IMG/VR virus record: IMGVR_UViG_3300032288_005778
Span: 18,389-82,388 of that record
Direction: 5' to 3' (one strand)
Source of the DNA: a virus
Length of the DNA: 64,000 nt
The notes under the pieces are model-generated. The model was given only the letters and a program-made list of their open reading frames with translations. It was not told the origin of the DNA and made no database searches. Each line of letters starts with the position of its first letter. Position 1 is the stretch's first letter. This document shows, in pieces, positions 6,839 to 8,152 of the stretch. The position numbers were made by a program, and so were the translations under genes.

Positions 6839-7177
6839 TTAGGCAATTATCCAGTTATCGTCATTAATGACAATTACTTCGTTATAGAAACCCTGTATAA
6901 TGCAATCTCTTATTTCTACTTTGAATTGAGTACCAACTGGCAACCATTCAAGCTTTAACCCCTCTGTGTCGCCACTGAAGCTAAAGATTCCTATTCCAGT
7001 TAGTAGATCGTGAACTGCCTCGTATTGCGCGGGTCCATTACTTTCTATTAAGTTGATTAATTCAGGGAGAAAAAGCAATCGCAAATCTTTATGTGCGGTG
7101 TACCAACCTTCAATCTCGAAACTCTTGGCTAAAACAACGCCAACCTTGTCATCTTTTATTAGTTTTCTGATTTCCAT
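6839..7177 (-). CDS. Conserved phage hypothetical protein, directly after the degenerate terminal repeat
   Basis: RBS AGGAG 5 nt before ATG; 'KLIKDDKVGVV...GWYT...LF.PEL...LEWLPVGT.F' resembles a widespread small phage family. Confidence 0.75.
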   Translation of the reverse strand: MEIRKLIKDDKVGVVLAKSFEIEGWYTAHKDLRLLFLPELINLIESNGPAQYEAVHDLLTGIGIFSFSGDTEGLKLEWLPVGTQFKVEIRDCIIQGFYNEVIVINDDNWIIA

Positions 7178-7202
7178 TTTTCTCCTGCCTTGCCTTGCAA
7201 TT

Positions 7203-7239
7203 CTTGCAATTAACCCAGTTCTCCAAAGTCAGCCTGCTT
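7203..7239 (-). CRISPR. Detached degenerate repeat (R6)
   Basis: 19 nt identical to the 3' part of the array repeat (cttgcaattaacccagttc on +); the rest is diverged. Confidence 0.75.
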
Positions 7240-7242
7240 CAG

Positions 7243-7872
7243 TCATCCCCAATACCCTGCTGCTATCTCTAAAGCTTTTATTAGTTTTAGCTGCTTTAGG
7301 ATTTCTATCTCCCAGTCATCAACCACCTGAATATTTGGTACTACAAGCTGGTCTAAAACATACTTAAACTTATCCGACCAACTACTAAAATTATAAAAGT
7401 CAGCAGACGTACTGAGTTTTCCTATCGTTGCATTTTGTTCAACTAACCTCTTGAGCCTTTCTTGGAGCGTGAAAGACTGTAAATTCACTTTATGATGCAA
7501 ACTAGCAAGTAGCTGATAGTTATCAACCTCTACCTCTTTAATTTTCTGTGCTATCAACACCTCTTGCTCACAAAAGTATCCCACTGTGCCATCCTCATGT
7601 TGCACGGTAACTGTATCTTGGTTTGGGTGCATACTAGGTCTACAGAGAATATACACTTCCGCTCCAAACCATTTTTGTTTAGTCCCTTGAATTATGGGAC
7701 TTACAACCCCAACTGGCAGGTTAAACTTCAGTGGAACTTTGTTACTCTCCAGCCATTCAGCGTCAACTTCTATTAAAGAATGCAAATCGTCTGTTTTTTG
7801 CTTATTGCAATTCTTGCAATTAACCCAGTTCCCCAAGGTCGGTTTCACCGTTATTAGTTTTGATTCGCTCAT
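7243..7872 (-). CDS. Hypothetical protein (209 aa) starting inside CRISPR spacer 4 and reading through repeat R5
   Basis: AGAGGAG RBS then ATG at 7872; R5 encodes VKPTLGNWVNCK; long open frame to 7243. Confidence 0.7.
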   Translation of the reverse strand: MSESKLITVKPTLGNWVNCKNCNKQKTDDLHSLIEVDAEWLESNKVPLKFNLPVGVVSPIIQGTKQKWFGAEVYILCRPSMHPNQDTVTVQHEDGTVGYFCEQEVLIAQKIKEVEVDNYQLLASLHHKVNLQSFTLQERLKRLVEQNATIGKLSTSADFYNFSSWSDKFKYVLDQLVVPNIQVVDDWEIEILKQLKLIKALEIAAGYWG

Positions 7873-8152
7873 AAATTCTCCTCTTGCCTTGCCTTGCAAT
7901 TCTTGCAATTAACCCAGTTCCCCAAGTCCGGTTTCACCTTTCAGATCCTTATTCTTAGTAATTGTTCTAATACTTGCAATTAACCCAGTTCCCCAAGTCC
8001 GGTTTCACCTCGATTAATAGATCAAGGGCTTTATCGCTTAACTTGCAATTAACCCAGTTCCCCAAGTCCGGTTTCACCATTTTCTCAGCTATATATTCGT
8101 TTTTGCAAATAATAACTTGCAATTAACCCAGTTCCCCAAGTCCGGTTTCACC
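7813..8152 (-). CRISPR. CRISPR mini-array, 5 x 37-nt repeat GGTGAAACCGGACTTGGGGAACTGGGTTAATTGCAAG
   Basis: Repeats at 8116-8152, 8042-8078, 7973-8009, 7902-7938 (identical) and 7813-7849 (2 mismatches); unique spacers of 37, 32, 34 and 52 nt; 3' end ATTGCAAG resembles ATTGAAA(C/G) repeat ends. Confidence 0.95.

Follow-up and report, generated by a model that had tools for sequence, protein, structure and literature searches.

The closest described counterpart of the locus analysed here is the type V-U2 CRISPR locus of Aphanizomenon phage vB_AphaS-CL131, a cyanophage without cas1 and cas2 in which a TnpB-like effector gene is followed directly by an array of 10 spacers and 36-nt repeats (PMC6293099). 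The 2018 paper leaves the function of type V-U2 open, and the parts of its text that were available describe no genes in the array or fused to it. The present locus is found in a window of 64,000 nt (the whole stretch of DNA that was analysed), which belongs to an 82,388-base IMG/VR virus record (IMGVR_UViG_3300032288_005778, estimated 83% complete) and represents a cyanophage contig related to CL131, from a virus whose hosts are bloom-forming cyanobacteria. It has the same order of TnpB-like effector and adjoining array. Unlike CL131 it has a different repeat family, two embedded genes for proteins of 209 and 112 amino acids (aa), a duplicated start module and a repeat that is translated. In CL131 a gene likewise begins in a repeat: the annotated ATG of gp060 lies within the last repeat, which is truncated after 14 nt, and gp060 matched only itself in a search of the phage collection. 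We consider it rather probable that accessory genes accumulate, by recombination, at a hot spot between the array tail and the trailer, which is the conserved 3' end of a thymidylate-synthase-like gene; they would be captured at repeats or linkers and expressed by read-through.

Several other described systems share features with this locus. Short CRISPR-derived homologies act as crossover points in recombination between spacers or repeats and phages, and a review cites, in the part of its text that was accessible, Varble 2019 and Watson 2018 as well as solitary repeat units in this connection (PMC8616872). A junction at the end of a repeat, seen in the related metagenome contigs L023 and L029, is of this kind. 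Unlike in those cases the array is here phage-borne, protein genes are captured in its tail, and the junctions in the window lie in a linker. Degenerate or ectopic repeats beside a gene near a CRISPR locus are also known from CreTA and cr-like RNAs, as far as the accessible portions of these reports go (PMC9458426, PMC8501985, 10.1101/2023.03.03.530964, 10.1101/2024.01.05.574328). A guide that partly matches the 5' region of a gene is a further likeness: 17 nt are the same behind repeats R4 and R6 of the window, followed by divergence. Unlike in CreTA, the match is a duplication flanked by the repeat end ..CAAG, which is probably not a protospacer adjacent motif (PAM), no toxin was identified in the family and structure searches, and the repeats of the window lie in mRNA and coding sequence instead of in a separate small gene. 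A conserved association of module and CRISPR locus is also missing, as neither the 209- nor the 112-aa protein is encoded in any of the 12 other loci examined (L007-L018, comprising CL131 and 11 related viral loci).

Hot spots for morons and other accessory genes, and the mobile regulatory cassettes of T4-type phages, offer another parallel, with small genes whose function is unknown swapped at a fixed position, conserved flanks on either side and short repeats at the junctions. What distinguishes the window from these hot spots is that its repeated sequences consist of CRISPR repeats and a linker derived from a repeat, and that translation of one gene passes through a repeat. Integron cassettes similarly form a row of promoterless genes behind a common promoter, each after a similar recombination site, whereas the sites in the window are CRISPR repeats plus linker and not attC-like, and there are two genes only. 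To our knowledge type V-U2 systems have remained biochemically untested, newer studies not having been searched for. Full-text searches of the open-access literature with a limited set of terms returned no account of protein genes that lie within a CRISPR array or whose translation passes through one, nor of an ectopic fusion of tracr (trans-activating CRISPR RNA) region, repeat and Rha gene such as the one discussed below; the translated repeats and this fusion are unusual. On the comparative evidence, protein genes can be acquired, lost and even rebuilt in a phage-borne array, beyond the storage of guides, and for annotation this means that open reading frames (ORFs) inside or abutting arrays should not be thrown out automatically.

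Two genes embedded in the array tail

Read on the minus strand, to which the coordinates of its elements refer, the locus consists of the effector gene, a tracr/leader region, repeats R1-R4, a 'spacer 4', R5 within the 209-aa ORF, R6, the 112-aa ORF and a terminator. R1 (8116-8152), R2 (8042-8078), R3 (7973-8009) and R4 (7902-7938) are exact 37-nt repeats that, with spacers of 37, 32 and 34 nt, form the canonical array (7902-8152). According to local alignment, the 52 nt of spacer 4 (7850-7901) comprise a 17-nt linker, a GGAG, an ATG (7872-7870) and seven codons. R5 (7813-7849) is a variant of the repeat, CCGACCTT, with two mismatches, and is translated as codons 9-20 of the 209-aa ORF. R6 (7203-7239) is degenerate, begins three nt after the stop codon of the 209-aa ORF and is followed by a second copy of the linker (7186-7202, by sequence match), a GGAG and the ATG of the 112-aa gene. 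An earlier reading of this DNA from its letters alone (the sequence-only reading) had described both arrangements, including the start of the 209-aa gene inside spacer 4, and both are present as it said. It had further claimed that R6 keeps only the 3' half of the repeat. The degeneracy stands, but the extent does not: about three-quarters are kept, corresponding to 27 of 37 positions or the 3' 27-28 nt (GACTTTGGAGAACTGGGTTAATTGCAAG, 7203-7230), with one extra T and one mismatch. R6 retains the whole part of the repeat that would bind an anti-repeat.

The 17-nt linker AATTGCAAGGCAAGGCA occurs at 7885-7901 and 7186-7202 and nowhere else in the window; these two copies compare with 0.06 expected, and two were reached in 1 of 100 shuffles. 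Together with the adjoining repeat ends the linker forms the 36 nt that are identical between 7186-7221 and 7885-7920. This identity had been reported from the sequence-only reading, and the similarity between the R4 and R6 modules is in fact longer, extending over about 88 nt with two short gaps and ending 1 nt before R5. The shared module contains the 3' part of the repeat, the linker, the ribosome-binding site (GGAG), the ATG and about eight codons, the similarity behind the ATG running through AATC..AAAACTAATAA. GGAG lies 5-6 nt upstream of both ATGs (7872 and 7177). The similarity past the linker is collinear and was equalled by 6 of 2000 shuffles and by 9 of 1938 genomic windows. Spacer 4 is a diverged copy of the sequence behind R6, that is, of the 5' untranslated region (UTR) and first codons of the 112-aa gene. 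Since MEIRKLIKD is native to the family of the 112-aa protein and the modules are homologous, MSESKLIT at the beginning of the 209-aa ORF derives, in diverged form, from the codons with which the 112-aa gene starts. The option that MSESKLIT is homologous to the 209 family's own N-terminus was given up for this descent.

Judged by these alignments, the 209-aa gene (7243-7872) is a chimera of a borrowed start (residues 1-8), R5 with part of the linker (residues 9-22), read in the only open frame of the repeat, and a 5'-truncated body that belongs to a phage protein family (from about residue 24). The same short sequence, AATTGCAA, stands directly behind R4, R5 and R6, as had been noticed before. 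Behind R5 (7805-7812) it forms the beginning of the linker, after which the sequence passes into the family body (..TAAGCAAAAA, encoding NKQK). In the alignment of the family (A1) the window shows MSESKLIT and VKPTLGNWVNCKNC, the latter encoded by R5 and six bases of the linker, where the other members have an N-terminus of their own such as MSQKDISFTIQEAVQNRVRAII, and homology begins at KQK(T/A)DDL. The three frames of the repeat read GETGLGELG*, VKPDLGNWVNCK and *N...; only VKPDLGNWVNCK is open, while the others reach TAA or TGA. This open frame is in phase with both the ATG at 7872 and the body of the 209-aa gene, and the translation of R5 in the ORF is VKPTLGNWVNCK. Starting from 7872, the predicted N-terminus of the protein would be MSESKLITVKPTLGNWVNCK. 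Without the upstream start the next in-frame ATG is found at residue 81, and the invariant family positions 24-80 would be lost. The CKNC motif to which the sequence-only reading had drawn attention does result from translation of R5; it is a by-product of a 9-nt duplication (AATTGCAAG-AATTGCAA) and is absent from the homologues, which show V--RAIIKQK at this place.

Both embedded ORFs are real genes by the evidence of homologues found elsewhere. The body of the 209-aa protein defines a small phage protein family with six homologues of 63-73% identity. A library of 1.84 billion representative proteins contained four matches at E<=1e-3: the close homologue P0007, which is among the six, the distant relatives P0017 and P0018, and P0019, a 58-aa translated array. 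In the 197-kb viral contig L019 the homologue has its own N-terminus and lies in a tight operon without repeats. No relative of the 209 family was found in the search of genome contigs. The 112-aa gene (6839-7177) is an intact member of its family: eight homologues of 54-84% identity are all 112-116 residues long, and full-length matches of 29-30% identity occur in 10 Vibrio phage records. The native N-terminus MEIRKLIKD is kept in all eight homologues, and K-x-IKD is kept in the protein of Vibrio phage K375. A homologue of 78% identity in L021 is located behind an unrelated gene and lacks CRISPR repeats. This L021 gene is flanked by a perfect 37-nt direct repeat (4956-4992 and 5359-5395) with two GCGATCGC (HIP1) palindromes.

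Family searches gave little indication of the function of the two proteins. In Pfam the 209-aa protein had matches below the cut-offs only (ATG5_UblA with E 0.0021 and 19.1 bits, where 23 are required; TRASH_ZMYM4 with E 0.068) and the 112-aa protein none at all, and neither had a match in NCBIfam, PHROG or PADLOC. The profile search of the PDB gave insignificant matches for both (E 0.07 to 0.6), and their ESM Atlas scores of 0.76-0.81 are under the meaningful level of 0.9. The toxin or addiction role that had been suggested for these genes is unsupported, as neither protein has a significant family match in Pfam, NCBIfam, PHROG, PADLOC or the PDB profiles.

The variable slot in related phages

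Related loci have effectors that are 94-96% identical, the same repeat family and 2 to 28 repeats. A metagenome scan with the 3' 18 nt of the repeat added to these: it matched 31 stretches, five of which carry a recognisable full repeat (L023, L029, L033, L048 and L053). The other 26, which were not inspected individually, were taken as chance or coding look-alikes. Eight tails including that of the window were readable, those of L009 and L011 being interrupted by contig ends. The sequence-only reading had proposed comparing relatives for different genes at the repeats, and this comparison shows tails that hold nothing, other genes or another array. On these alignments, array and trailer enclose a slot whose cargo varies.

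Four tails are without cargo. In L048, AATTGCAAGATCAAG stands behind the last full repeat, then comes a terminal repeat in degenerate form (GGTGAAACCGACTTTGGGGCTGATCTGATTGCAAG), and the trailer, whose beginning in the window is at about 6733, adjoins it directly. The three repeats of L033 and L053 are succeeded by a short stretch of tandem repeats and, at the end, by the part-repeat GAACTGGGTTAATTGCAAG, and L012 is similar to them. The L012 locus looks to be decaying, to judge by its sequence: at 6001-7700 its effector ORF matches residues 1-522 only, about 200 nt of the leader are missing, and in the array two repeats just 14 nt apart are followed by a degenerate part-repeat.

The other tails carry insertions of different kinds, two genes (209 and 112) being present in that of the window. 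The tail of L010 contains a gene for an IetA-like AAA ATPase (9145-10167; Pfam AAA 1.7e-31, PADLOC IetA 7e-80), directly behind the last repeat and before the same trailer as in the window, to which the L010 trailer is 94% identical over 2751 nt. No IetS-like partner is visible in the approximately 100 nt before the next gene of L010, which leaves a lone defence-system component beside a phage array. L008, otherwise L033-like, has two additions that are absent from L033 and L053. The first, about 350 nt with a 79-aa ORF, lies between two repeats, and direct repeats of 36 nt (at 8137 and 8525) bracket it. The second measures about 610 nt, contains a 67-aa ORF and a promoter-like site, and lies between the last full repeat with AATTCAAGCAAGCAAGCG and L033-type sequence. 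No homologues of the 79- and 67-aa ORFs were detected, also not by tblastn of the phage collection. Small genes bracketed by repeats of about 36-37 nt recur in the L021 gene of the 112 family and in the ORF embedded in L008. In L018 a second array (about 9760-10510) with a different 37-nt repeat, GTTTCAACTATCCTCAGTCCCCAGTCTTAGTTGCAAG, is found within about 25 nt of the first. Its repeat has the ..TTGCAAG end in common with the V-U2 repeats, and one of its spacers resembles a spacer of L008. In the CL131 branch the arrays L013-L016 end in a repeat next to the convergent terminase region, with no gene, at the place that gp060 occupies in CL131.

The comparison also bears on the linker and on the two unusual repeats. 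Forms related to the linker stand after the last full repeat in L048 (AATTGCAAGATCAAG) and L008 (AATTCAAGCAAGCAAGCG), and on this comparison the linker is an old sequence that trails the last full repeat in this phage group. The sequence of R5 is the one that the L009 and L012 arrays use as their standard repeat, and R6 has the GACTTTGG variant in common with the terminal repeat of L048, which together point to exchange between lineages. A pattern search for the arrangement of repeat and linker found it in no other IMG/VR contig. The sole match, L022, was set aside as a chance occurrence within a methyltransferase-like gene of an unrelated AT-rich phage.

A second translated repeat

The metagenome contigs L029 and L023 contain the 3' 290 nt of the effector gene (the tracr region), one repeat and then a gene of the Rha family (PF09669, residues 13-99), with the leader of about 200 nt between effector fragment and repeat missing. 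The Rha ORF has a GTG start inside the repeat, which is read in the same frame as in the 209-aa ORF (VNLDLGNWVNCK), and continues with DSRLIAKELG. In Rha homologues, among them the native gene of L008, a sister phage (13366-13761), DSRLIA is preceded by 18 residues that belong to the family itself. The junction is exactly at the last base of the repeat, and the module replaces the 5' UTR and 18 codons. In L023 (1-1344) the module occupies the Rha locus, with the promoter of Rha on one side and the body of the gene on the other, and the ORF is disrupted by a frameshift. In L029 (3313-4235, minus strand) it is located about 4 kb upstream of the position of the effector gene in L010. The fusion pattern had no match in IMG/VR.

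The alignments show that in-frame joining of a truncated gene to a repeat has occurred in this phage group on no fewer than two occasions, and the CRISPR repeat serves as coding sequence in these two independent fusions. The ectopic module of tracr region, repeat and Rha gene could be the product of self-targeting and repair, or a built-in single guide against the Rha genes of rivals.

Origin and expression of the embedded genes

In the history that we favour, two ordinary phage genes would have been captured, their junctions falling either in repeats or in the linker, which is short and rich in CAAG. The tail of the window would then correspond to an L048-like tail with three arrivals: the 209 body between linker and terminal repeat, the 112-aa gene, and a copy of repeat, linker and start. 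The 112-aa gene could have arrived intact behind the terminal repeat (R6) and linker, and the 209-family gene without its first 20 or so codons, the junction being 8 nt inside the linker that follows R5. Subsequently the repeat 3' part, the linker, the Shine-Dalgarno sequence, the ATG and the first codons of the 112-aa gene would have been copied to a position ahead of R5. Translation would begin at this copied start, cross R5 in its single open frame and enter the 209 body. We infer this order of events from the alignments, and likewise co-transcription and use of the chimeric start, whereas the anatomy, the homology between the modules, the reality of the two genes, the absence of repeats at their homologues and the variability of the slot are observed. 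The simplest route would be unequal crossing-over or gene conversion between repeats of co-infecting relatives. The repeats may be relics and tools of recombination, and any effect of CRISPR RNA (crRNA) maturation on the two mRNAs would be a side effect, whether or not it has since been exploited.

An intrinsic terminator, a hairpin around a GCGATCGC palindrome, is predicted behind the 112-aa gene (6815-6840) and is the only terminator-like site on the minus strand within 6600-10200. No convincing promoter match was obtained between the array and the 209 and 112 genes. The single terminator and the lack of a strong promoter hit suggest that effector, tracr/leader, array, 209 and 112 genes and terminator form one transcription unit. 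Read-through is the probable mode of expression of the two genes, with a separate GGAG site for either of them. RNA contigs from two metatranscriptomes (related strains, with 7 and 17 differences) cover 8123-8500 and 8123-8615 at depths of 44 and 34, and in one of the two runs the effector coding sequence upstream of 8500 is left uncovered. An abundant tracr/leader RNA would be compatible with this pattern, although contigs do not reveal RNA ends. The common contig end at 8123 is an effect of the 31-mer graph 30 nt into the repeat and not an RNA end.

Several observations weigh against this history or parts of it. The chimera is known from one clonal lineage only, so that selection is not measurable. 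Homology of the module past the linker amounts to 15 of 17 nt after a gap, which is significant and not overwhelming (6 of 2000 shuffles), and the duplication could have come about by unequal crossing-over, gene conversion or as a long 'spacer'. The perfect identity of 36 nt beside diverged flanks could mean that this stretch was kept for a function. The two ORFs of L008, without detectable homologues, may not be genes. The RNA contigs stem from related strains and are limited to the effector tail and repeats, with neither embedded gene covered, although this lack of cover is uninformative. The sequence-only reading had proposed either that the repeats control the cargo genes or that they are recombination points for gene cassettes. 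The second proposal is well supported by the comparison of relatives, in which junctions fall in repeats or in the linker. As to the first, homologues without repeats, which that reading had named among the findings that would count against it, exist for both genes (L019 for the 209 family, L021 and the Vibrio phages for the 112 family).

Alternative explanations

Three further explanations concern function or mechanism and a fourth the reality of the arrangement. The first, which we regard as doubtful and place second after the hot spot, is a functional coupling in which the effector and tracrRNA bind or process R4, R5 and R6, so that crRNA maturation turns the 209 and 112 genes off and loss or inhibition of the effector turns them on; the 'guides' behind R4 and R6 include the Shine-Dalgarno sequence and the ATG. 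Such a safeguard or addiction logic is equally doubtful; it concerns present function and would be compatible with a recombinational origin. If tracr-dependent processing as in other type V systems holds, R4, R5 and R6 would each give a crRNA-like fragment, and cutting or binding at R5 would part the 209 start from its body. R6 keeps exactly the part that pairs with the candidate anti-repeat and would be retained in mature type V crRNA, repeat and linker are identical over 36 nt while the flanks have diverged, and the sequence signals indicate a single transcription unit. Effector-repressed toxin modules beside CRISPR loci, one with a protein toxin, have been described, as seen in the available portions of the reports (PMC9458426, PMC8501985, 10.1101/2024.01.05.574328). 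Against the coupling, the arrangement is confined to one lineage and the homologues occur without repeats, no significant family match suggests toxicity of either protein, and the 112 family is an ordinary gene in Vibrio phages. The available RNA contigs show no RNA ends. Processing of V-U2 crRNA is uncharacterised, and the CL131 paper, in the text that was accessible, found no tracrRNA (PMC6293099). As a case on one transcript, the locus makes it tractable to ask for type V-U2 whether crRNA maturation competes with translation.

The anti-repeat on which such a coupling would depend is a candidate only. CCCAATTAAACCCC in the 3' tail of the effector gene (8393-8406) is able to pair with GGGTTAATTG of the repeat 3' part and was identified by positional homology with the clear anti-repeats of L013 (duplex of -33.3 kcal/mol) and CL131. 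In these two the anti-repeat pairs with the 3' part of the repeat, and anti-repeat and repeat vary together. In the window the duplex energy is not above chance, 190 of 300 shuffles being equally good, so that positional homology is what speaks for this element. Folding of the R4-spacer 4-R5 segment is unremarkable (z = -1.05).

The next explanation, which appears unlikely to us and stands slightly below the coupling, is that CRISPR activity itself drove the capture. Guide-directed cuts in sibling genomes at the slot border, together with spacer or repeat homology, would drive exchange in a homing- or integron-like manner. The array would be a gene-capture platform that cuts sibling genomes, recombines rival DNA into its tail and rescues truncated genes via repeats; crRNA maturation on a shared transcript would couple cargo expression to effector activity, and the ectopic Rha fusion of L023 and L029 would be a second product of the same process. 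As a joint claim this is just as improbable. The explanation draws on the right border of the slot, which lies inside a protospacer (6724-6757, plus strand, 5' flank GGGAGTT). When 79 unique spacers from nine arrays were matched against the window there was one match, to the penultimate spacer of L008 (8598-8631) and L048, which agrees with window positions 6724-6753 in 29 of 30 nt and with L010 (10268-10301) in 32 of 34 nt. The similarity between the window and L010 stops at position 28 of the protospacer. In L048, which carries the spacer, what is left of the target is its first 10 nt, and these adjoin the terminal repeat.

The spacer-bearing genomes are without an intact target and the target-bearing genomes without the spacer, which would fit rearrangements at the slot border promoted by guide-directed breaks and by spacer or repeat homology. 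In L023 and L029 the module of tracr region and repeat meets the Rha gene exactly at the repeat end, where the native gene of L008 has GTT on the 5' side, and recombination between spacer and target is documented, according to the accessible text of a review (PMC8616872, citing Varble 2019 and Watson 2018). Other observations do not agree with it. None of the 79 spacers matches the Rha, 209 or 112 genes. The left junctions of the window are within the linker (8 nt into it behind R5) and not at a repeat/spacer boundary, which is where the junction of L029 and L023 falls. A PAM is not established, the cleavage activity of V-U2 is unproven, and the coincidence of borders is based on three genomes. 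The observation nevertheless raises the question whether targeting between phages by CRISPR drives mosaicism beside the array.

Autoregulation at the DNA level, as in Cre-like systems, is very improbable. Here the R4 crRNA would guide the effector to bind, and not cut, the 5' UTR of the 112-aa gene and repress it. The 17 identical nt behind R4 and R6, followed by divergence, resemble the partial matches of cr-like regulatory RNAs, as far as these are covered in the available text (10.1101/2023.03.03.530964). The 5' flank of the target is the repeat end (..TTGCAAG), as for every spacer of the array, and would have to be a non-PAM, as the array would otherwise be attacked; since the matching site is flanked like every spacer, repression by the R4 guide is unlikely. 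Two protospacer-like sites with a native flank carry GTT (n=2, with no PAM established). The duplication explains the 17-nt identity more simply.

Integration of long inserts by Cas1-Cas2, considered in view of the 36-37-nt duplications in the window, L008 and L021, was rejected as the main explanation because the duplication spans about 88 nt with gaps, the record has no cas1 or cas2 and the L021 repeat is not CRISPR-like.

Finally, an artefact is scarcely credible, be it that the 36-nt repeat was assembled wrongly or that the ORFs are spurious and belong to a long array in decay: de Bruijn contigs of other runs do break at the 36-nt repeat and leave the order of modules without independent confirmation, but both ORFs have full-length homologues, every junction is seen in two other studies with 0-1 differences, and the region shows similar k-mer depths throughout. 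By word share, at least half of the stretch is present in ten runs from four studies, and contigs from two runs of other studies (X2 and X7) were compared. These DNA contigs cover 6700-7215 and 6700-7221, and 7192-7834 and 7192-7738, respectively, and the X2 contig additionally covers 7808-7914. They confirm each junction and, as they break at the repeat, not by themselves the module order.

Effector gene and neighbourhood

The effector gene (8123-9886, 587 codons) encodes a type V-U2 effector (C2c8, TnpB-like), as assigned with NCBIfam and Pfam. Residues 2-420 match NF038192, the curated C2c8 model that defines type V-U2, with 480.3 bits against a cut-off of 350. The Pfam matches, OrfB_IS605 and Cas12f1-like_TNB (PF01385 1.8e-20, PF07282 5e-16, PF12323 4.4e-5), indicate the TnpB-like RuvC/OrfB core and zinc-ribbon (TNB) domain expected of this type. 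The gene is 76.9% identical at the nucleotide level to the 'transposase' gp061 of Aphanizomenon phage vB_AphaS-CL131. Its ORF passes through the tracr/leader region and has its stop codon inside R1. The array adjoins the effector gene, also a feature of type V-U2, with the four exact 37-nt repeats beginning within the last codons of the ORF. Cas1 (PF01867) and Cas2 (PF09827) had no matches in the 82,388-base record, which is estimated to be 83% complete. Rfam at the gathering threshold gave no match in the window, and the tRNA scan found no genes there. Adjoining the CRISPR locus (window 4032-6742) are a phage-borne dnaN (sliding clamp) and a 481-aa protein of the thymidylate-synthase fold with a long N-terminal extension and a PterinBD-DUF4346 tail.

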